Source: Candidatus Bathyarchaeota archaeon (GTDB lineage: Archaea > Thermoproteota > Bathyarchaeia > Bathyarchaeales > Bathycorpusculaceae). From it: a stretch of 64,000 bases of DNA. The notes below the pieces were generated by a model. The model was not told the origin of the DNA, searched no databases, and saw only the letters and a program-made list of their open reading frames with translations. The DNA lies in the NCBI GenBank assembly GCA_963828195.1, contig CAWHDT010000008.1, positions 128,001 to 192,000 of the forward strand, read 5' to 3'. Each line of letters begins with the position of its first letter. Positions within the stretch are counted from its first letter, which is position 1. The position numbers were made by a program, and so were the translations under genes. Positions 28,950 to 37,702 of the stretch are shown here, in pieces.

Positions 28950-30200
28950 CTAGGAAAATTGAACTTTTATTTCAATTGAGCTGTAGATGTCTTTTTCAAT
29001 TGACCGCTTGAGATTGCTGATTTTGTCAACAGACTCTTTATACGCGTTTTCTTTGACTGCTTCATGCGTTTCTAAGCTTGTTTTTTTGGCTTTCAGCTGG
29101 TCAACCTGCGCCTGAAATACGTCTAGATTGCGTTTTACCTCATCCATCATTGGTGAACTTGACAGCTGCACTCTTTCAGCCGCTAATTCTAAGCATCTGA
29201 TTTGAAGCTTGACAAGCGAATCTGACTTAAGTACTTCATTTATGGCTTGTTCCGCTTTTCTTGCTTTTTCAGGTTTTAATTTAAGTTTGTCCTCTGCTAT
29301 TAAGGTCTCAAGCTTCTGCAAAATCTCCTTTAGCAACGGGTAACCTTTTTCCTCTGCGGTCAGGGCATCGAAAGGATTCTCCAAGTATCCGTTGACTTTC
29401 TTAAGCTCATCTGGAGTTATTCCTCCTCCGCCCCCTGAGGTGGCTAACGCCTGCATTTTTATGAAGGGTTTTTGCAGGTGCCTGATTGAATTTTTTAATT
29501 CACAGCTCAGCACGTCTATCTCTGCATTTACCGAATTCAGTTTATCGATGGGTCCGCTGTTCTTCAGTTCAGCTATTTTTTGTTCCAGTTCAGCGATTTC
29601 TTTTTCAATCGGGGTGCGCTCATCCTTTATTTTCTCTTTTTCTTCCCCGGTTACAGTTAATTGCTGCTGGACTGTTTGAAGTTCATTTAAAAGGTGAAAG
29701 GCTTCTTCCAAAGTTTTTGTTTTAACGTACTCTTTTGTGATGAAGTCGTTCAGGGTGTTGTAAGCCTGTTTTGATCTTTCGTATATGGCTAAAAATTTTC
29801 GTCTATCCATAATGAAGAAGGGCGAAATTCTTGGAAACCAATTCTTAATGTCGATGTCAATTACGATAAAGACCTTTTGAATTTCCTGCGCGTACTTGTT
29901 TAAAGTGTCATAAGAAATTTCTTCTGGGGCATCAACTTTTTTTAGGCGATCAAGAAATAAATGGGCAAGCTTGTTTAGGGCTCTGGCTCGATTGTAAACC
30001 TTCATGTTTCTTCTTTCGATTTCTCTGGTGCTGTTATCGAGGAGCATCTGGTTTACGTCCCTGACACTCTCGATTGCCATGTTCACGTCATCTCTTAACC
30101 TTTTGGCTTGAGCATGAACGGGCGAGAGGATCGAGTTTGTCTTGTCTTCAAGCCACCGGTTTACTTCGCTGGATGTTGTGAACTGGACTGTTTCCGTCAA
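28950..30200 (-). CDS. Long coiled-coil hypothetical protein
   Basis: 416 aa, K/E/L-rich heptads; ends 5 bp before the phosphatase start. Confidence 0.7.
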   Translation of the reverse strand: MTETVQFTTSSEVNRWLEDKTNSILSPVHAQAKRLRDDVNMAIESVRDVNQMLLDNSTREIERRNMKVYNRARALNKLAHLFLDRLKKVDAPEEISYDTLNKYAQEIQKVFIVIDIDIKNWFPRISPFFIMDRRKFLAIYERSKQAYNTLNDFITKEYVKTKTLEEAFHLLNELQTVQQQLTVTGEEKEKIKDERTPIEKEIAELEQKIAELKNSGPIDKLNSVNAEIDVLSCELKNSIRHLQKPFIKMQALATSGGGGGITPDELKKVNGYLENPFDALTAEEKGYPLLKEILQKLETLIAEDKLKLKPEKARKAEQAINEVLKSDSLVKLQIRCLELAAERVQLSSSPMMDEVKRNLDVFQAQVDQLKAKKTSLETHEAVKENAYKESVDKISNLKRSIEKDIYSSIEIKVQFS

Positions 30201-30540
30201 ATTGTGTTTCCCTGTATCTTACTTTATGCGGGCTTATTTATCACTATTTCCAAATTTCAGGTTCAATCTAATGGTTACCCATTATTTTTTGAGTAGCTAC
30301 TCTTAAAAAGGTTAAAACGCCCCTGCCTTTTGTCATATAGGCGCCTTTGAGCTTGCCTACAACAAGCAACAGTAAGACATAAACATGCCGAAAAGAACCA
30401 ATGCTGCCCAACTGTAAATGTCAATTATTGTATAAGAGGACTTGCGCTTTTTTTTTAAAAAAAATTTCCTATCGTCCTCCTGAAAAACAGATGAAAATCC
30501 GATAAGTCAATTCACCGATTTTCAAGCGTGAGTGCTAAAA

Positions 30541-32038
30541 TTAGATAGTTTGGTTCCAACAGTAAACGTGCTGATATTGTCCTGCCGTTGGGTAGGCTGG
30601 GTCATCGTAGACTATATCAAGCTTTGAGCCGTATTTAGCAAGGGGCTGCTTGTAGAGAAGTCCAGACTTGCGCTGAATTATTATCGGCTGGCCATATCCC
30701 CCAGATGTTGTCTCCTAGGTTTCTCATTCCCCAGCCATAGTCATTAGGTAAAACTAATGCATCTTGCGCTTTCACATTATTAGTTTCTTTAGGATTTTCA
30801 ACTACATCTGACCAGAACTTTTGGATTGCTGCGAATTGTTGGTCCTGCAAAAGGCCGCTCGCACTGCTGGCAACAGTACCATTCAGAGAAGTGCCAGACG
30901 TTTGCCCTGCGTAGTTAAAGACAACTACGTATTCTGCCCCACTTTCATACGATTGGCGCATTGCATCATACATTTGGTCGCCGCTCTGCAAGTAAGGCGT
31001 TGTCTCACTTGCCCAGGTTATCATTGTCCCCCAGCTTTTGCCTTGCATATCTGCAGCGCCCCTGACCAATGCGATATCCTGCGTGACTGATTGGTTCCAG
31101 CCAAGCTGCCCTAACACAACGTCATAGCCACCCAGATAATCATACCAGTCGAGAGCGTAGTCTGATGTAAAAAGCCTTACGTTTGTTTGATTGCCGATTG
31201 AGCTTAAGATATTCTGCTGCGTGCTAACGTAGTCGTTTGCGGCCTCGGTGTACGCTTGAAGCGGACGTGAATCCCAAAGTTGCTGGTAGGGTTCGAACTG
31301 GGAAATGTTGCCTTCGTCAGTCACTGCTGTGCCGTTTTCGTTTTGAACCATGCCGTTTGGCTGATACCACAGCGTTTCCATGTTTTCTCCAGTGCTTAAC
31401 CCCCAGTCCATGGTTGACAGCAAAATCGTGCCGTTCGTTAAGTAAGTGGTAGTATTGGATTCTGATGAGGAATCTGGGAAAGACTGGCTATTGGAAACAA
31501 TGATTTCTCCTGAAGTGAAAAATTCGATTTCTGTATTTTCAACGTTGTTTAGTGATTCGTATATTGTTCCATCTTCACTCCTGTCGATTGATGCGCCTGT
31601 CGTGTTATCGTAAAGGTTTACGCTGGTGTCTATCATTTTTCCGCCCGGTTCATCGTTGTAGTATAATCCTAGGAAATGGTTGCCCCAGCGAGCTTGAGCA
31701 ATACTCAAGAAAGAGTCACAGGTGTTTGCCGCATCGCCATTGTGGGCGTAATAAACTATGATGTTTAACCCTGAGTTGACGGTATAATCGCATATTTGCT
31801 CCATAGCCGTGAGGTTGCTCATGAGCGGTCCAGATTGCACAACAAACAAGTTAGTGTAACTCTTTACTTTGTCGATAAGTTGCTCTGCCTCGGTGACTGA
31901 GCTGCCGCAGTATGTGACGCCGATGTAAAAGGGCTTCTTAGCTGCAACTTGAACAGAGTTCTCTAATGCCACAAAAGCCGATAAAAGAATAACTACGGCG
32001 ACTGCCAGTGCCAAAGCTATTATCATACGTTTTTTCAT
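30541..32038 (-). CDS. Secreted hypothetical protein (glycosidase-like DEPGG); frameshifted near the C-terminus
   Basis: Signal anchor; FTSDYALDWYDY and WGTMITW motifs. Removing one base at 30642-30645 extends the ORF to ...LAKYGSKLDIVYDDP...WNQTI* ending at 30541. Confidence 0.7.
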
Positions 32039-32310
32039 ATTATGCCTCCCTCGCTGATGTATACACCCTTAACTTGCTATGTTCGATTGCATTGCAATAC
32101 TTAATGCTATATGTTAGAACATGCAAGCTATTGGATTGTCAAAGTCTACCCATAAAGCAACTAACCTAACGTGAACATCGATCATGCGGGAAAATCCATA
32201 GTCATTTAATACGGTAGCTATCCAAAATGGTTCTGTGAAGTCTTCGTCTAGAATGGGGTTCATGTGAAAAACCGTCTGTTTTTACCTTTTTTCTCTTAGG
32301 GTATGTAACC

Positions 32311-32493
32311 ATGAGTTATGAAAAACGGGTTAAGCGTCCTAAGCATGGAACTTTTAGATGGCGCAAAGGCGGTAAGCAGTGGATTGGCGGAAACCAATTT
32401 GTCAACGCAGAAAACGAATACGAAAAGAAAACTTCACTCGGCTCAACATACAGTTCTGAAAACGTCGAACAATATTTTAAAAACAAGAAATAA
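32311..32493 (+). CDS. Small basic passenger protein
   Basis: 60-aa ORF just inside the left TIR. Confidence 0.4.
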   Translation: MSYEKRVKRPKHGTFRWRKGGKQWIGGNQFVNAENEYEKKTSLGSTYSSENVEQYFKNKK

Positions 32494-32521
32494 GACGCCG
32501 CTAAGCTAGTATCTTCTTTTT

Positions 32522-33442
32522 TTATTTTCTTGGAAAAATCTGTGTAAACTGATTTTGCCTAACCTCATAGACCGACAAAAACACTTTCCCACTTTCGCCA
32601 AAACTTTTGTTATCTTTAAGATATTGACCAAACCGCTCTAATTTTCCACTGATAGTTTTTAACTGACCGCTCTTTGCATCAATTTCTTTAGACTTTTCAA
32701 TATACTCAAAGTTTTCGTCAGTTAACTTATCTGACGTAACAAAATACGACTTTTCCAGTGAACAATCGTTAGCTAAGAATATTTGCCTTGAGTTTTGAAT
32801 CCATTTTGCAACATCTTCTTTCTTAGCGTGCCTATCTTTACATTCAGCTATAACTATTGGTTTATCTTCAGCGTCAAAACCTACAACGTCTATTTCGCCT
32901 ATTTCTGGAAATTTGTGACGAGTTGCAATTCGGGTTATTTTCAGTTTGGAATTGCGCATGATGAAATTAGCCGTTCTAAATTCAAGGAATACCCCTTTTC
33001 CATCAGACTCTTTTTTTATGAAAATGCGGTTTATCTTTTCGAGCAAATTATCAGTCATTTTGTCGTAAAAATCAGAGCCTCTTCCGTTTGGAGTAGGCTC
33101 TTTTAATTTGTTGGCTAATTCGTTTAAAACTGAAGAGTCGATTTTTTCTCCATGAGTTAATTCTCGAATAGTCGCCATTTTATCGAAAGTCAGCTTTGTT
33201 GTTTCTTTAGAGTTAATTTTTATGCCTTTTTCTTTGATGGTTTCATGAATTATTGTTCTTTTGGTTTCTTTTTCGTAAACTTCAGCGGTGTACTCTTTAA
33301 TTTTTTCTAAAGTTAACAGTCCGTCTAGATATTTTACGAGGTCACGTTTGCCATAGGTTTTGGGTACGGTAAGGTTTTCGGCTTTTGCAATTTGCTTAAG
33401 GTCTTTTTCATCCAGTTTTGACAATAGCTCGGTTTTAGTCAT
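32522..33442 (-). CDS. PD-(D/E)XK restriction-endonuclease-like protein (Mrr_cat-like) with N-terminal HeH/SAP-like motif
   Basis: LE...GEIDVVG...IAECKD catalytic pattern; N-terminal LSKLDEKDLKQIAK..NL.V....K.DLV. Confidence 0.75.
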   Translation of the reverse strand: MTKTELLSKLDEKDLKQIAKAENLTVPKTYGKRDLVKYLDGLLTLEKIKEYTAEVYEKETKRTIIHETIKEKGIKINSKETTKLTFDKMATIRELTHGEKIDSSVLNELANKLKEPTPNGRGSDFYDKMTDNLLEKINRIFIKKESDGKGVFLEFRTANFIMRNSKLKITRIATRHKFPEIGEIDVVGFDAEDKPIVIAECKDRHAKKEDVAKWIQNSRQIFLANDCSLEKSYFVTSDKLTDENFEYIEKSKEIDAKSGQLKTISGKLERFGQYLKDNKSFGESGKVFLSVYEVRQNQFTQIFPRK

Positions 33443-33477
33443 GCCTCTCCATTATTTGCAGAGGTTGTATAAATCAT

Positions 33478-34605
33478 TTAACTCTTTTTTACCGACGCAT
33501 TTTGAATTAGGGTTAGCCACTTGTTTTTTCCCTCAACCGTGTTTCCGCAAGCGTCAGCGGGAGTTTTACCGCCTAACGCTTCGTGTGGTCTAACATAGTT
33601 GTGGTAAATCTGGTAGCCGTCTATGATGTCGCTGTCAGTGATTTTTAGTCCTCTCATGGTTTTTTCTCTGTCTCGGATTTCGCCGTTCATTCTTTCCATT
33701 TTGTTGTTGTGTCTCAGTTCACCTTTCCCTGTCAACGTGATTTCGTGTATGTGGTTAGTGCGTGGGTAGATTTCCATGCTTGCGTCAGAGTAAGATGCTA
33801 AGCCGTCTGTTATGAGTGTTTCAGGCTTTTTACCCATAAGGTAGCTTGCTCTTGAAAAGAGCCTTGTTGCGTCATGTCTGTCTTTTGTGTCAGCGACTTC
33901 TTGCGCTATCCAGAAGCGTGTTTCATCATCCATCATGGAGAATATGTACTTCATATTTCCTGAAAATTTGACGTAAATTTCGTCTGCACGCCATGTGTCG
34001 CTTACGTTGGGTGTGATTTTTTCAGCGTAATCTTTCATTAGGGCTATGTATTTTCTTATCCAGTTTAGGATTGTTCGGTAAGACACTTTGACACCCATCA
34101 GTTCTAGGGCTTTCATTGTGTTTCTGAGGCTTTCTCCGCTGAAGTATAGCTGAAGGCTTGTTGTGATTGCTTGCGGGTTGTGCTTCATTTTTTCAAAGCC
34201 TATGTTGAATGTGAAGTATTTGTGGCAGTCTCGGCAGAGATACTTTTGGATTGTTACGGCTTTGTTTCTGCGTTTTCCAGCCTTCATTAGGTTGTGTGAT
34301 CCGCAAAAGATGCATTCGCTTAGGTTCTCTATTGGCGCTATGGTTCTTACTTTTACTTCTGCTCTGAGCGTTAGTGAGAAGTTTACTGCGTGGATGTGTT
34401 TGCATTCTACATGTCGGTAAGTGTTATCAGGGCATTGGCAAACCCATTCATTATCAACCTTTGTCACTGCGTAGTCACCGTTTCCCGACTGAGATTTTAC
34501 GGTGTATAGGTAGTCGTCTATTCGGCTTACTTGATTGGCTGTTTGGGCTATTGCTTTGCCTTTTGTTTCTCTGAGGTTTTCGGTCATCATTGTACTTACC
34601 TTCAA
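33478..34605 (-). CDS. IS6-family DDE transposase with N-terminal SWIM and zinc-ribbon domains
   Basis: CQCPD...CKHIHA (SWIM); CIFC...CRDC; WRADEIYVK, ITDG and NNKMER (D-D-E); YHNYVRPH. Confidence 0.92.
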   Translation of the reverse strand: MKVSTMMTENLRETKGKAIAQTANQVSRIDDYLYTVKSQSGNGDYAVTKVDNEWVCQCPDNTYRHVECKHIHAVNFSLTLRAEVKVRTIAPIENLSECIFCGSHNLMKAGKRRNKAVTIQKYLCRDCHKYFTFNIGFEKMKHNPQAITTSLQLYFSGESLRNTMKALELMGVKVSYRTILNWIRKYIALMKDYAEKITPNVSDTWRADEIYVKFSGNMKYIFSMMDDETRFWIAQEVADTKDRHDATRLFSRASYLMGKKPETLITDGLASYSDASMEIYPRTNHIHEITLTGKGELRHNNKMERMNGEIRDREKTMRGLKITDSDIIDGYQIYHNYVRPHEALGGKTPADACGNTVEGKNKWLTLIQNASVKKS

Positions 34606-34671
34606 TCTTACCTATTTTACCTATAGGCTTACCCCGCTTATAAATATTTAGGTAACGCAATAGGTAAGATT
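34604..34671. promoter_or_regulatory. Divergent promoter with 13-bp inverted repeat (putative operator)
   Basis: AATCTTACCTATT (34604-34616) / AATAGGTAAGATT (34659-34671) flank TTATAAATA; additional TTACC half-sites are present. Confidence 0.65.
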
Positions 34672-34717
34672 AATATAACCGTTTAACCATGAGCATACCT
34701 GATAAGAGGTAAATTAA

Positions 34718-34894
34718 ATGGGAGAAATAACATATCTGAACAAAGCCACAAACAAAGGCGAATCACTCAGAACAACCGTGCCAATGAGTGTAGTTAAACA
34801 GTTTGGGCTAACCGACGAGGATAAACTAGATTGGCAAATTAAAGCAGAAGGTAGCGAACTAATAATCCAAATAAAAATAATCAAGAACAAATAG
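34718..34894 (+). CDS. AbrB/SpoVT-like DNA-binding protein (58 aa)
   Basis: Translated by hand: MGEITYLNKATNKGESLRTTVPMSVVKQFGLTDEDKLDWQIKAEGSELIIQIKIIKNK; GAGGT RBS. Confidence 0.85.
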   Translation: MGEITYLNKATNKGESLRTTVPMSVVKQFGLTDEDKLDWQIKAEGSELIIQIKIIKNK

Positions 34895-34910
34895 AAAAAG
34901 CAACCCAAAG

Positions 34911-35087
34911 CTACCGAGATTTAGAGGGATAACGAATAGAGTTAACCCATACACCCAATCCAAACGATACAAGCATTAAGTCGGCAGTTCCGACATATTT
35001 TATACATTGGGGAAAAAACATCGCTGAAAAGAGTATGGTAATTAAGCCCACTACAACGGTTGCTATTACAAAGTTTTCAGTTTTCAT
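34911..35087 (-). CDS. 58-aa two-TM passenger peptide
   Basis: Translated by hand: MKTENFVIATVVVGLITILFSAMFFPQCIKYVGTADLMLVSFGLGVWVNSIRYPSKSR. Confidence 0.45.
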   Translation of the reverse strand: MKTENFVIATVVVGLITILFSAMFFPQCIKYVGTADLMLVSFGLGVWVNSIRYPSKSR

Positions 35088-35108
35088 AGTTAATCAATAG
35101 AAAAAGGA

Positions 35109-35495
35109 TTGATTAGTGTGACTCTACTTGTTGACGTTTTTTCGGTGTTCGATATAATTTTGATTGCCATTATGCTTTCAGGTTCAATAGTCAAAATGGG
35201 TACTAGACATGGAACGATAAGAGGCGATACTCATTTCAAAGGTTTTTACTTACTTTTCTTCGCATTCATATTAGAAAACGTCGCAATTACAGTGTTCGCA
35301 AACTACGTGTTTTTGCCATTTCTTGAGCAAATGTTACCAAACAGTTTCTTCAAAGTATTGGCACTAACGGGCACTTTGATATGTCTATGTAATATTTGGT
35401 TTGCTTCAACTTTTAGATTCAACCAACGAATAGAAGTAATTGTTTTGACTGTAGCAATGGCGGTAATAACATTTTTGCTCTTTATTTACACCTGA
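35109..35495 (+). CDS. Four-TM passenger membrane protein
   Basis: 128-aa hydrophobic ORF. Confidence 0.55.
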   Translation: MISVTLLVDVFSVFDIILIAIMLSGSIVKMGTRHGTIRGDTHFKGFYLLFFAFILENVAITVFANYVFLPFLEQMLPNSFFKVLALTGTLICLCNIWFASTFRFNQRIEVIVLTVAMAVITFLLFIYT

Positions 35496-35631
35496 CCTAA
35501 ACTGACCTAAATAAAAAAAGGAAAGTCGGTTTGTTACCGACTTGAACGTACTTTTCTAATTGCAAGTTTAGCTCTTACATGGGTTAGGTGTTGATGCCTC
35601 AAGCAATTAACCTCAAAAGAAAAAAACTATA

Positions 35632-36051
35632 TTGACAGCGAAACAACAAGCTATTATGAAAAAATATAAGCCAAGCATAGACATCCCAAAACTTGCGAGA
35701 AAATACGGGACTCTCAAACCTTCGGAACTTTCAAGGGCAATATTGCAAGACAAGGGAATTAGGAAAAGCCAACCCTCTATCTATGCATGGCTTCATAATC
35801 ACCCTAACGAGCGTAACAAGTTAAGCATTGAAATCAAAAATGCCTCTCCCAGAAAAAAACTCCATGAAATACCTATACCCTATGCCAAACTAACAAGTCA
35901 ATATTTTGGTTCAATGGAAATAATCAATTTAGAAACGATTGAAAAAGCAAGAGAAGAACTCAAAGTAATTGAAGAACAGTTTTGGCATGAAATTTGGGAA
36001 AAGACAGGAGAAGAGTTCGCTAGACGATTTTTCACAGAGAAAACCACCTGA
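35632..36051 (+). CDS. Hypothetical passenger protein, possible HTH
   Basis: PSELSRAILQDKGIRKSQPSIYAWL; the stop codon overlaps the right TIR. Confidence 0.55.
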   Translation: MTAKQQAIMKKYKPSIDIPKLARKYGTLKPSELSRAILQDKGIRKSQPSIYAWLHNHPNERNKLSIEIKNASPRKKLHEIPIPYAKLTSQYFGSMEIINLETIEKAREELKVIEEQFWHEIWEKTGEEFARRFFTEKTT

Positions 36052-36150
36052 CGAAGACTTCACAGAACCTCCAAAATCATATTACCCAAAAATGGGTAGT
36101 TACTCTTAAATAGCTAACGGCGGCATTGAACCAACAAAGAGACAAACCAA

Positions 36151-36735
36151 ATGGACACGAAAAGACTCACGCTAATCATCATCTTCATCGCATTAACAAC
36201 CGCCCTAAGCATAGGAGGACCAAAAATCCCCGCACCCTATGCACCATTCCTCTATTATCAACTATGGGAAATCCCGATTGTTGTAGCCTTTTTAGCCATA
36301 GGACCAAAAGCAGGCGTCACAGTAACTATCATAAACACATTGATTTTGCTAGCTGTTTTTCCCGGTTCCCTTCCGATAGGACCAATTTACAACCTTGACG
36401 CTGTGCTGGCAATGCTGCTGGGTATCTACATACCGTACAAAATTGCAACGCGCAAATGCCCAACAGAAAAACTAAGCAGTTTCCTGCGACAACACCTTAA
36501 ATTAATAAGCGTATCAGCAACTGCATTAGGAATCATTCTCCGAGTACTCGTCACTACACCAATAAACTACTTCGCCCTACAACTAACTTATCCATTCGGT
36601 TTCGGACTTAACTCCACCGGATCTCTGGTTCTGCTTCCAGAGATCGCATTCTTCAATGCGACAGTAGCGCTCTACACAATACCTGCTGCACTTGCAGTTG
36701 TAGTAGCAATTACTTCCCGATTTAAACTACAATAA
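36151..36735 (+). CDS. ECF transporter S component
   Basis: KIPAPYAPFLYYQLWEIP, GPKAG and FN...LY motifs; six TM helices. Confidence 0.75.
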   Translation: MDTKRLTLIIIFIALTTALSIGGPKIPAPYAPFLYYQLWEIPIVVAFLAIGPKAGVTVTIINTLILLAVFPGSLPIGPIYNLDAVLAMLLGIYIPYKIATRKCPTEKLSSFLRQHLKLISVSATALGIILRVLVTTPINYFALQLTYPFGFGLNSTGSLVLLPEIAFFNATVALYTIPAALAVVVAITSRFKLQ

Positions 36736-36742
36736 AAAAGAT

Positions 36743-37702
36743 TTAGAATCCTAAGGATTCTGCCAGTACCTTAGGGTTTATTTGTCCTGCTTTGAATGTT
36801 CTGCCAGTTTTCGCATTGTTTATTATAAGGACCGCTGGGGCGAATAAGCCGTGGTCTATTTTGTAGAAGTCTTTGTCTGCTTCGCGGAAAATCTGCAGGA
36901 ACGGTTTGCCATAGTCTTTTGAAGCCATAGATGGGGCTTGCTCCACCAGTTTCTGCAAGGCAGCCTCATCGTCATAATCGACGGTGCAGTAGACGGTGCC
37001 GCCGTAGAGGATAGCGTCGTTTGTACGTGCCATTGCCACTTCAAAATCGGTTCCAAGCGGAGGAATCGGCGCGTAACCCAATGCGTAGCGAATCATCTTC
37101 GGGTTCAAGCCGAGGGTTCGAAGTTTGTGAATTCCCACTTCTACAACTCTGCCTGCAACTTGGGTTAAGCCAGCTATGCTTGCGGTTGGAGCCACAACCA
37201 CAATCAAGTTTGGGGCAGAAACGCTGCTGGCGCAAGTGACCTTTTCGATTAGCGCATCGGAGGGCAAAACGTTGCTTTCCAACGTAAGAACCGCCCTATC
37301 GCTTTGGTCTTTGTAGCCGATTTCTTCGTAAACATCCTTAGGCTTCAACGCCAACGCACGAACTGGACCCGACCCGATGGCTATTGCGTCGCCGTCTTTT
37401 ATGCGCCACCCAGCAAACTGCGAACCCAACATTGCAACGGCTGGGAAATCTGAGGAAACAGTTATCGACGGAAAAGTTATATCTCCGTAGGTTTTGAAGC
37501 CAAGTTGGACTTTTCCAGCGCCGCCCAAGCAGAGTTCAGTCAGTTTTTTTCCTGCCTGAAAGCCGCCTGGTGCTTTTACACCTGCGTCAACGATGGTGGC
37601 TCCAGCGGTTGATTTCGAGACGGTTACTCCGTAGGATTCTGGGTTATCGATAAGTTTTTGGGCTATATTCCAAGCCATTTTGTTCACGCTTAAAGCTGCC
37701 AT
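36743..37702 (-). CDS. mch: Methenyltetrahydromethanopterin cyclohydrolase
   Basis: LSVN, CLGG, LGSQFAGW, GSGP.RALA, TNDAILYGG and DFYKID..LFAPA motifs. Confidence 0.96.
   Translation of the reverse strand: MAALSVNKMAWNIAQKLIDNPESYGVTVSKSTAGATIVDAGVKAPGGFQAGKKLTELCLGGAGKVQLGFKTYGDITFPSITVSSDFPAVAMLGSQFAGWRIKDGDAIAIGSGPVRALALKPKDVYEEIGYKDQSDRAVLTLESNVLPSDALIEKVTCASSVSAPNLIVVVAPTASIAGLTQVAGRVVEVGIHKLRTLGLNPKMIRYALGYAPIPPLGTDFEVAMARTNDAILYGGTVYCTVDYDDEAALQKLVEQAPSMASKDYGKPFLQIFREADKDFYKIDHGLFAPAVLIINNAKTGRTFKAGQINPKVLAESLGF

Follow-up and report, generated by a model that had tools for sequence, protein, structure and literature searches.

A cargo-carrying IS6-like unit transposon of a soil bathyarchaeon and its consistently built archaeal relatives

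The genome of a soil archaeon of the Bathyarchaeota (2.83 Mb in nine contigs, 96% complete) carries, in the 64-kb stretch analysed here (the window, C8:128001-192000), an element of 3841 bp (32229-36069 between its ends) in which one transposase gene, a small AbrB-fold gene and several further genes lie between a single pair of inverted ends. An original prediction, made from the sequence alone, had taken it for a recently inserted, cargo-carrying member of the IS6 family of insertion sequences (ISs). The open reading frames (ORFs) that it had listed around a single transposase are all present inside it. The features of the locus, with protein lengths in amino acids (aa), are as follows.

32221..32228, no strand: target-site duplication, left copy TCCAAAAT, identical to 36070-36077; a related 8-mer is single in an uninterrupted paralogous site of a same-genus genome
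32229..32248, plus strand: terminal inverted repeat on the transposase-downstream side, 20/20 against the other end, beginning GGTTCTGT
32262..32277, plus strand: subterminal second block of the two-part end, TGTGAAAAAYCGTCT type, recurring at the other end and in related elements
32311..32493, plus strand: 60-aa basic ORF, coding status unsupported, no family match
32522..33442, minus strand: 306-aa predicted PD-(D/E)XK nuclease with an N-terminal helical domain, assigned by motif and fold search; cargo
33478..34605, minus strand: 375-aa transposase with SWIM zinc finger, zinc ribbon, helix-turn-helix (HTH) and DDE domain (D208, D267, E304)
34606..34717, no strand: divergent promoter region and proposed operator array, TTACCTA/TAGGTAA repeats around a TTTATAA box
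34718..34894, plus strand: 58-aa AbrB/MazE-fold protein, core gene and proposed regulator, divergent from the transposase
34911..35087, minus strand: 58-aa hydrophobic ORF of a two-gene membrane module; size and position match in relatives L023 and L043, similarity weak
35109..35495, plus strand: 128-aa hydrophobic protein, membrane-module cargo, clustering with those of L023 and L043
35632..36051, plus strand: 139-aa orphan ORF whose stop codon overlaps the element end
36020..36039, minus strand: subterminal second block, counterpart of 32262-32277
36050..36069, minus strand: terminal inverted repeat on the AbrB side, 20/20 against the other end
36070..36077, no strand: target-site duplication, right copy TCCAAAAT, identical to 32221-32228

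The perfect 20-bp inverted repeats and exact 8-bp duplication of the original prediction were both borne out. The 20-mer GGTTCTGTGAAGTCTTCGTC occurs exactly twice in the window, once at each end and in opposite orientations with no mismatches, and 100 dinucleotide-preserving shuffles gave no match to it; the 8 bp TCCAAAAT stands immediately outside both ends, a duplication of the length found in IS6 elements. About 12 bp inward of each terminal block lies a second block (TGTGAAAAAYCGTCT type) that echoes the terminal CTGTGAA...CGTC, and L023, the closest relative, has two ends that do not differ from each other over their full 50 bp. The ends of the 3841-bp element are two-part structures of about 50 bp. 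IS257-type IS6 ends likewise start GGTTCTGT. Both ends read GGTTCTGTGAAGTC... and show the GG start, the G at position 7 and the cTGTt motif of IS6 ends, the consensus having been taken from two IS6 reviews (Varani et al., 2021; Harmer & Hall, 2019). The G+C content is 35-43% within the element against 43-50% in the flanks, and an Rfam scan of 31500-36800 gave no RNA family at E <= 0.1. The unit is a real transposon and almost certainly mobile or recently mobile.

Further units of this kind lie in the same genome. A protein search of it found nine places, comprising seven full-length transposase paralogues (59-100% identity) and two fragments. All seven full-length copies, including that of the window, lie within GG-starting inverted ends in units of 2.4-6.1 kb with 8/8 duplications, as listed below.

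C8 (window element): 3841 bp, duplication TCCAAAAT
C5:545557-551607: 6051 bp, duplication TGTTTTTT
C4:105826-109934: 4109 bp, duplication TAATAAAG
C3:369560-374934: 5375 bp, duplication CATTTTGG
C3:116583-119530: 2948 bp, duplication ATTGTTCA; ends degenerate, 12/20
C1:296460-298893: 2434 bp, duplication CTCTCTCT
C6:18214-20647: 2434 bp, duplication TCGAACAG

The C1 and C6 units, which contain a 271-aa passenger as well as the AbrB-fold gene, are identical at 2434 of 2434 positions but their flanks differ at 456 of 600. The whole end-bounded unit, passenger included, has therefore transposed recently in this genome. These two copies with different duplications exhibit the defining property of a unit transposon or transporter IS (tIS), passengers that move inside one end pair. 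The single-transposase layout with cargo inside one pair of repeats, as originally proposed, holds for all seven units here and for 54 of 80 related loci elsewhere.

Those loci were found with an alignment (A1) of the six distinct transposase paralogues of the genome, which was used to scan one genome per species. The scan gave 385 pattern matches, 254 of which encode a relative, and the best 80 of these 254 were examined. Their hosts are mostly metagenome-assembled genomes (MAGs) of Bathyarchaeia, joined by Methanoperedens, Methanoregula, Nitrososphaeria/Nitrosotalea and Asgard MAGs. An element was called where GG-starting ends agreed at 14/20 or better, the duplication agreed at 7/8 or better and the transposase lay between the ends. 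The 54 elements delimited in this way range from 2129 to 8093 bp and all have 8/8 duplications; reading the right 8-mer 8, 16 or 24 bp further out, as a control, gave 0/80 calls each time. Complete elements were also seen at three loci in MAGs labelled bacterial (L027 and L070, Limnocylindrales; L055, Saccharibacteria), which are most simply explained by binning contamination, with transfer as the alternative.

For the comparison of gene content, the 54 external elements were combined with five distinct ones of the host genome, leaving out the duplicate C6 copy and a later-delimited unit (C3a). ORFs of at least 50 aa in these 59 elements form 209 clusters, 183 of which are confined to one element, and the transposase is present in all 59. 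The conserved core consists of the transposase and the divergent AbrB-fold gene; all else is variable cargo. Further copies with different cargo, which the original prediction suggested looking for in this genome and its relatives, were thus found. The cargo is largely without family assignment: Pfam matches at E <= 1e-4 were obtained for 29 of the 142 ORFs of 90 aa or more in the external elements, the other 113 staying unmatched. Restriction-modification genes are present in eight of the 54 external elements (L055, L056, L062, L068, L069, L070, L078 and L080), including a BsaWI-type enzyme with a methylase in L068, and in nine of 59 when the own-genome unit E_C3b is counted. The cargo of the sister elements includes type I/IIG-like methyltransferase, specificity and nuclease genes; E_C3b has genes for an NOV_C nuclease, a specificity subunit and a 628-aa methyltransferase whose N-terminus is of the HSDR_N nuclease type, and a DUF4145 protein is encoded in E_C5 together with a Panacea-domain protein. 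Elsewhere HEPN, Fic/DOC, NYN, GNAT, aspartyl protease, winged-helix regulator and TATA-binding protein genes are found. The last is the cargo of a 7.6-kb relative (L069:2555-3115, minus strand; Pfam TBP, E 1.3e-29), where it stands beside a type I-like methyltransferase and a specificity subunit. The original proposal that the lineage spreads defence-type genes is supported in so far as its elements repeatedly carry restriction-modification and similar genes.

Pairwise comparison indicates how the cargo changes. The 3841-bp element aligns with L023 only over the AbrB-transposase region (80%) and the ends (85-96%), and with L024 over AbrB, transposase and nuclease (72% over 2395 nt), and it has its membrane module in common with L043 and L023. 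Sequences resembling an end occur inside nine of the 59 elements, 12 in all against 3.45 expected from shuffles, and nested or extended ends may thus be one of the ways in which cargo is captured. We infer two routes by which new cargo would be acquired, namely recombination between conserved ends and core, leading to module exchange, and, occasionally, the recruitment of an outer end that lies beyond an older one. Among longer elements, a second end-like sequence of matching orientation was noted inside the outer end of L052 (position 78) and L062 (position 82), and likewise in E_C4, E_C5, L035, L093 and L097.

The AbrB-fold gene had been regarded as a passenger by the original prediction, which did not hold. 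A profile search finds the gene in 34 of the 59 elements, and in 33 of these (the exception being L080) it lies directly upstream of the transposase and on the opposite strand; because of this frequency and this position it is assigned to the core. Some of the elements that lack it have a protein of 150-190 aa in its place, in two clusters of eight and six elements. In an alignment of 32 family members (A3), 26 match Pfam MazE_antitoxin at E <= 0.01, the best at 6.5e-7. Against solved structures, the A3 profile found only 7xi6 'C56' (E 0.033) and 3o27 (E 0.11), both weak matches to proteins of similar size (56-68 aa); these two are AbrB-like DNA-binding regulators of Sulfolobus plasmids or viruses.

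The 112-bp region between the AbrB-fold and transposase genes (34606-34717) contains two TTACCTA repeats upstream and two TAGGTAA repeats downstream of the TTTATAA box, arranged as inverted repeats of 13-20 nt and as direct repeats. Other AbrB-bearing elements have an equivalent intergenic layout with lineage-specific variants of the repeats. Across 28 such regions (L060 and L035, with intergenic distances of 17 and 26 nt, and four others not tabulated were left out), the pentamer AGGTA/TACCT occurs 108 times in 3258 nt, or 33.1 per kb, the remainder of the elements having 1.6 per kb; 200 shuffles gave a mean of 6.2 and a maximum of 14, and 22 of the 28 regions hold at least three pentamers. 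From this arrangement we infer that the AbrB-fold protein would bind the TTACCTA/TAGGTAA repeats and repress both promoters. Two points tell against this role: the pentamer was picked by eye from the very sequences in which it was counted, and up to two per region may be ribosome-binding sites; and the window AbrB protein scores 20.8 bits with Pfam MazE, below the cut-off of 24.7.

The transposase frame is intact, its true start being likely the ATG at 34590. D208, D267, E304 and R311 are invariant across the six paralogues of A1, in which the DDE domain is preceded by an HTH region, a SWIM-type finger CxC...CxH (C56, C58, C68, H70) and a second ribbon of four cysteines (C98, C101, C124, C127). 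Pfam DDE_Tnp_IS240 matches with 65.8 bits (E 5.6e-18; cut-off 27). The NCBIfam IS6 model gives 107.9 bits over model positions 1-201 of 202, below its cut-off of 125, a score twice that of any other IS family model (IS481, 52.6 bits, cut-off 224; IS1, 52.1 bits, cut-off 100), while the IS1/IS1595 N-terminal zinc domain, at 29.2 bits, passes its cut-off of 28 and corresponds to the second zinc ribbon. The best annotated relatives among 72,556 plasmids are 'IS6-like element ISCpe7 family' transposases of Clostridium perfringens, with about 30% identity over residues 132-364; no plasmid record in this set covers 80% of the query. At E <= 0.001 the transposase has relatives in 5727 protein clusters; lengths run from 365 to 405 aa among the 120 listed, which include an NCBI record named 'IS6 family transposase'. 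With at most about 30% identity to any annotated IS6-type protein of this plasmid set and the catalytic signature E-RMNGEI-R, the protein lies outside the strict family as defined by Harmer & Hall (2019) (close kinship with the short bacterial transposases, a shared N-terminal extension and the signature E-DH---K). Nor is the element compact in the IS6 sense of 0.7-1.8 kb and one gene, since it measures 3841 bp and has at least four further supported genes beside the transposase. To judge from sequence, the lineage is IS6-like in its ends, duplication and catalytic chemistry but falls outside both the compact one-gene and the strict-family definitions. The IS6-family label of the original prediction was accordingly right as to likeness (DDE_Tnp_IS240 domain, ends, 8-bp duplication) but too strong for a protein that stays below the IS6 model cut-off and shows at most about 30% identity to annotated members. 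In the 6.05-kb sister element on C5 (L009:4547-5932) the transposase has 461 aa, with an extra C-terminal tail of about 90 aa that is missing from the other paralogues.

Taken together, we propose with a probability of about 0.85 that the 3841-bp unit is an autonomous DDE transposon and belongs to a large clade of archaeal elements, distant relatives of IS6/IS26, in which a core machinery transports exchangeable cargo. Its own machinery would comprise the two-part inverted ends of about 50 bp, a transposase of 370-375 aa with SWIM finger, second zinc ribbon, HTH and IS6-type DDE domain, and the divergently encoded AbrB-fold protein, acting as a putative repressor at the repeats around the transposase TATA box. 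The transposase would join the ends to a target cut with an 8-bp stagger, giving rise to the 8-bp duplication. By analogy with IS26, a likely route is a replicative cointegrate that would be resolved by host recombination. The remaining genes would travel with the unit as cargo: the nuclease in an operon-like position after the transposase, the membrane module and two doubtful ORFs. Modules would be exchanged between the conserved ends and core, and some longer elements have apparently grown by means of an outer end beyond an older inner one.

Several known systems share parts of this architecture. IS26, IS257/IS431, IS6100 and IS240 have in common with it the DDE_Tnp_IS240 transposase, an HTH before the catalytic domain, GG ends with G7 and CTGT, and the 8-bp duplication. 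According to the IS6 reviews, canonical members have their own features in a length of 0.79-0.88 kb, one gene, ends of 14-20 bp and cargo that is moved only between two copies, whereas the 3841-bp element has a 375-aa transposase with two extra zinc modules, is equipped with the AbrB-fold gene and holds its cargo within one pair of two-part ends, each about 50 bp long. Harmer & Hall (2019) confine the true IS6/IS26 family to 789-880 bp and regard long clostridial and archaeal elements as distant enough to separate, and Varani et al. (2021) describe the ISfinder IS6 members as compact, with zinc-finger extensions in clostridial clades h and i. The ISCpe7 group (clade VII of Harmer & Hall and clade h of Varani et al.) is alike in its N-terminal zinc-finger extension and in the 30% identity given above; it differs in being bacterial and 1.2-1.3 kb long, and these sources, as far as available, describe no passengers or AbrB gene and report no SWIM finger for it. 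ISDsp3 of Dehalococcoides, the single IS6-family member named as a passenger carrier by Varani et al. (2021), resembles the tIS type in holding a passenger gene inside one end pair, but according to the same text it is a single copy of 1.45 kb with one hypothetical passenger, whereas the archaeal clade has 1-6 kb of changing cargo throughout. The Tn3-family unit transposons with regulatory or toxin-antitoxin modules also combine one transposase, one end pair and variable passengers with a MazE/AbrB-fold gene by the transposase (abstract of PMC7157771). The 3841-bp element differs from these modules in having no toxin partner beside its AbrB-fold gene. Tn3 elements have a transposase of a different family, 38-bp ends, 5-bp duplications and a resolvase.

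The original prediction had called the lineage possibly undescribed, and this still stands: in the literature searched on archaeal IS6, passengers and tIS, defence cargo and SWIM, no description of a single-end-pair cargo architecture with an AbrB gene was found, ISfinder itself not having been queried. Two apparent IS6 literature matches, PMC13685797 and PMC10691335, turned out to concern IS66 and IS605/IS607/IS630. It is nevertheless conceivable, although rather unlikely, that the lineage is already catalogued under another name, e.g. as the ISMhu11 subgroup of the IS1 family in ISfinder, in which case the architecture would be known. That subgroup is archaeal, 0.9-4.6 kb long and passenger-carrying; the second zinc ribbon scores above the IS1/IS1595 zinc-domain cut-off, the IS1 model itself reaches 52 bits and the ends fit GGnnnTG. 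Set against this, the IS6 model doubles the IS1 score over its full length, the nearest annotated relatives are IS6-like ISCpe7 proteins, one NCBI record of the family bears the name IS6 family transposase, and the name 'ISMhu11' is absent from the literature searched.

The element is inserted between two divergent genes and lies upstream of both. Its distance is 190 bp to the gene of a 467-aa secreted-type protein and 74 bp to that of a 194-aa membrane protein, which is followed by mch. In G016:C8, a same-genus genome, 27 nt of the left flank, a single 8-mer (TCTAAAAT) and 32 nt of the right flank are contiguous at about 90% identity; the element was therefore inserted into a continuous sequence, of which 8 bp were duplicated. 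Four public soil runs (X1-X4) from three studies were searched as assembled contigs, and the junctions with the element were bridged on the left in X1, X2 and X4 and on the right in X2 and X3, all with 100% identity. Six same-genus loci with the right flank (L016 and L018-L022) bring the sequence of window positions ~29002-30310 next to that from 36093 onward; these genomes join a 416-aa gene directly to the membrane protein gene, so that the stretch 30311-36092 of the window is an insertion by comparison. On either side of this 5.8-kb stretch, at ~30279-30320 and 36083-36118, stands a copy of a promoter-like motif that is about 40 bp long and contains the palindrome GAGTAGCTACTC.

A number of these observations weigh against a mobile unit of a consistently built clade. 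The uninterrupted G016 target is a paralogous copy of a ~60-bp motif and not the orthologous locus, and the six loci lack the whole 5.8-kb stretch (467-aa gene plus element), so they provide no clean empty site. No contig joining the flanks without the element was found among the four soil runs, all four joints listed lying inside the transposase gene and probably deriving from paralogues. The 3841-bp copy is single in its genome. Outside the host, 26 of the 80 loci gave no end call, some of them because their contigs are short, L039 having 2193 bases and L081 3035. Finally, the SWIM finger of the window transposase alone scores 14 bits, below the Pfam cut-off of 19.6, the three paralogues scanned all reaching 20.3-23.1 bits. 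The empty-site search suggested by the original prediction thus succeeded for the paralogous target but not for the orthologous locus, and its wording 'recently inserted' is based on the perfect ends and duplication of a single copy whose occupied junctions recur in runs of three studies, with no read-level empty site.

The same facts would suit a fixed, immobile resident that is retained because its genes, or its position 190 and 74 bp upstream of two divergent genes, benefit the host. We regard this as improbable: the transposase has an uninterrupted frame that retains every DDE residue, the ends agree at 20/20 and the duplication at 8/8, the element family is demonstrably active in the same genome (C1/C6 units), and the Logan contigs lose rare variants, which makes a missing empty site weak evidence.

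Among the cargo genes is that of the nuclease. Its motif (E154, D185, E200-C-K202) is invariant in 22 aligned sequences; 32 relatives were found in 5.8 billion proteins, none informatively named, and a sequence search against solved structures gave nothing meaningful, matches coming from the fold search alone. The AlphaFold (AF2) model has a mean pLDDT of 81.7 and a pTM of 0.68, with residues 54-84 disordered. In a Foldseek search its C-terminal half matched NucS/EndoMS structures best (2vld, E 6.8e-4, and 5gke; probability 1.00, E up to 3.2e-3), followed by Can2/Card1 nuclease domains and several restriction enzymes, the aligned part covering only ~100-110 residues. The predicted structure confirms the PD-(D/E)XK fold of the 306-aa protein. 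No PADLOC defence model matched it, so that 'restriction-type', as the original prediction put it, is apt for the fold but not for a defence assignment. Six window proteins in all were scanned with PADLOC: five matched no family, and the sixth, the 139-aa ORF, weakly resembled Cas2_II (E 4.5e-4, 17.9 bits), a match that is read as chance. The proposed check of the cargo by PADLOC and structure prediction therefore yielded the nuclease fold but, the Cas2_II match aside, no defence model.

The nuclease gene starts at 33442, 35 nt after the transposase stop (33478) and in the same direction, and the arrangement recurs in L024. This position, together with the restriction-endonuclease fold, raises the question of a transposition partner that would cut the second strand and convert a replicative element to cut-and-paste, as TnsA, a protein of restriction-endonuclease fold, cuts the second strand in Tn7. 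We consider such a partnership very improbable. TnsA is not among the listed fold matches, and the nuclease occurs in only two of the 59 elements. Within the genus, it is present in four of 81 genomes at five loci, two in intact elements directly after the transposase (the 3841-bp element and L024/G055), one a pseudogene beside a lone end (G015) and two lacking a transposase in the surrounding 1.5 kb (G078 and C9:97187-98110 of the host genome). The last is a 307-aa paralogue with 54% identity that lies alone between unrelated genes with no ends nearby. The distribution over these five loci agrees with a cargo gene and not with an obligatory partner.

The two hydrophobic ORFs of 58 and 128 aa recur together at the equivalent place in L043 and L023; the 128-aa protein is 55% identical to its L043 homologue (tblastn), the other membrane-ORF identities being weak. 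Two smaller claims of the original prediction found no support. The 60-aa basic ORF, counted there among the passengers, has no match in Pfam, NCBIfam or PADLOC and no relative in the 59 elements or the host genome. The 139-aa ORF, thought to be HTH-like, has no family match at a meaningful level in Pfam or NCBIfam and no HTH match; it found only itself in 5.8 billion proteins and has no relative in the 59 elements.

That the element is a chance or composite structure, i.e. a shorter insertion sequence with host genes bracketed by a stray end, or a decayed two-copy pseudo-compound, whose passengers are not moved, could appeal to the canonical IS6 habit of moving cargo only as two-copy structures and to the excess of inner end-like sequences in nine of 59 relatives, but can hardly be entertained when the duplication brackets the full 3841 bp, no inner end-like sequence exists there at up to three mismatches, the sister 2434-bp unit moved its passenger to two sites with different duplications and no delimited element is shorter than 2129 bp.

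The 3841-bp element is an IS6-like unit transposon, or tIS, in a large and consistently built archaeal clade of which no description was found. IS6-type elements are known almost only as tiny one-gene ISs that move antibiotic-resistance genes between two copies. This distant archaeal branch is consistently built otherwise: its transposase is larger and accompanied by a putative regulator, and its ends are long and two-part and enclose 1-6 kb of cargo that varies between elements. The transposase family is large (the 5727 clusters above) and extends across several archaeal phyla. Such elements provide a concrete means by which restriction-modification and related genes could spread among uncultured archaea of soils and sediments, and ends, transposase and regulator make up a compact set of parts that is a candidate genetic tool for archaea. 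The findings also bear on the question, raised by Harmer & Hall (2019), of whether archaeal and long 'IS6' elements are families of their own. A bolder proposal, to which we would give slightly less than even odds, is that these elements form a separate and very abundant archaeal family of regulated unit transposons, recognizable by two-part ends, an IS6-like transposase with a SWIM finger and a repressor of AbrB type that has an operator array of its own, and that this family is a main vehicle by which restriction-modification and other conflict genes move, both inside and among the genomes of Bathyarchaeia, Methanoperedens, Methanoregula, Nitrososphaeria and Asgard archaea; such a family may prefer promoter-proximal targets.

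As regards target choice, 60 reconstructed targets show a weak A/T preference 2-9 bp outside the duplication, and a strong target consensus is ruled out by a maximum of 0.26 bits per position. In another species, an independent related insertion (L109; G013:C7, ~32141-32221) ends exactly 16 bp upstream of the motif CCAAAAATGnGTAGyTACnCTTAAA, and its site is uninterrupted in two further species (L108 and L110). The window insertion (36050-36110) likewise ends exactly 16 bp upstream of this motif. The shared offset may be chance or a promoter-linked preference.

A further element of 785 bp in the host genome (C3:74585-75369, within C3:74074-75377) has related ends, no transposase and a 7/8 duplication. 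Exactly 8 bp separate it from C3:74576, where a decayed copy has its tip, and it was thus inserted into the 8 bp flanking a resident end.

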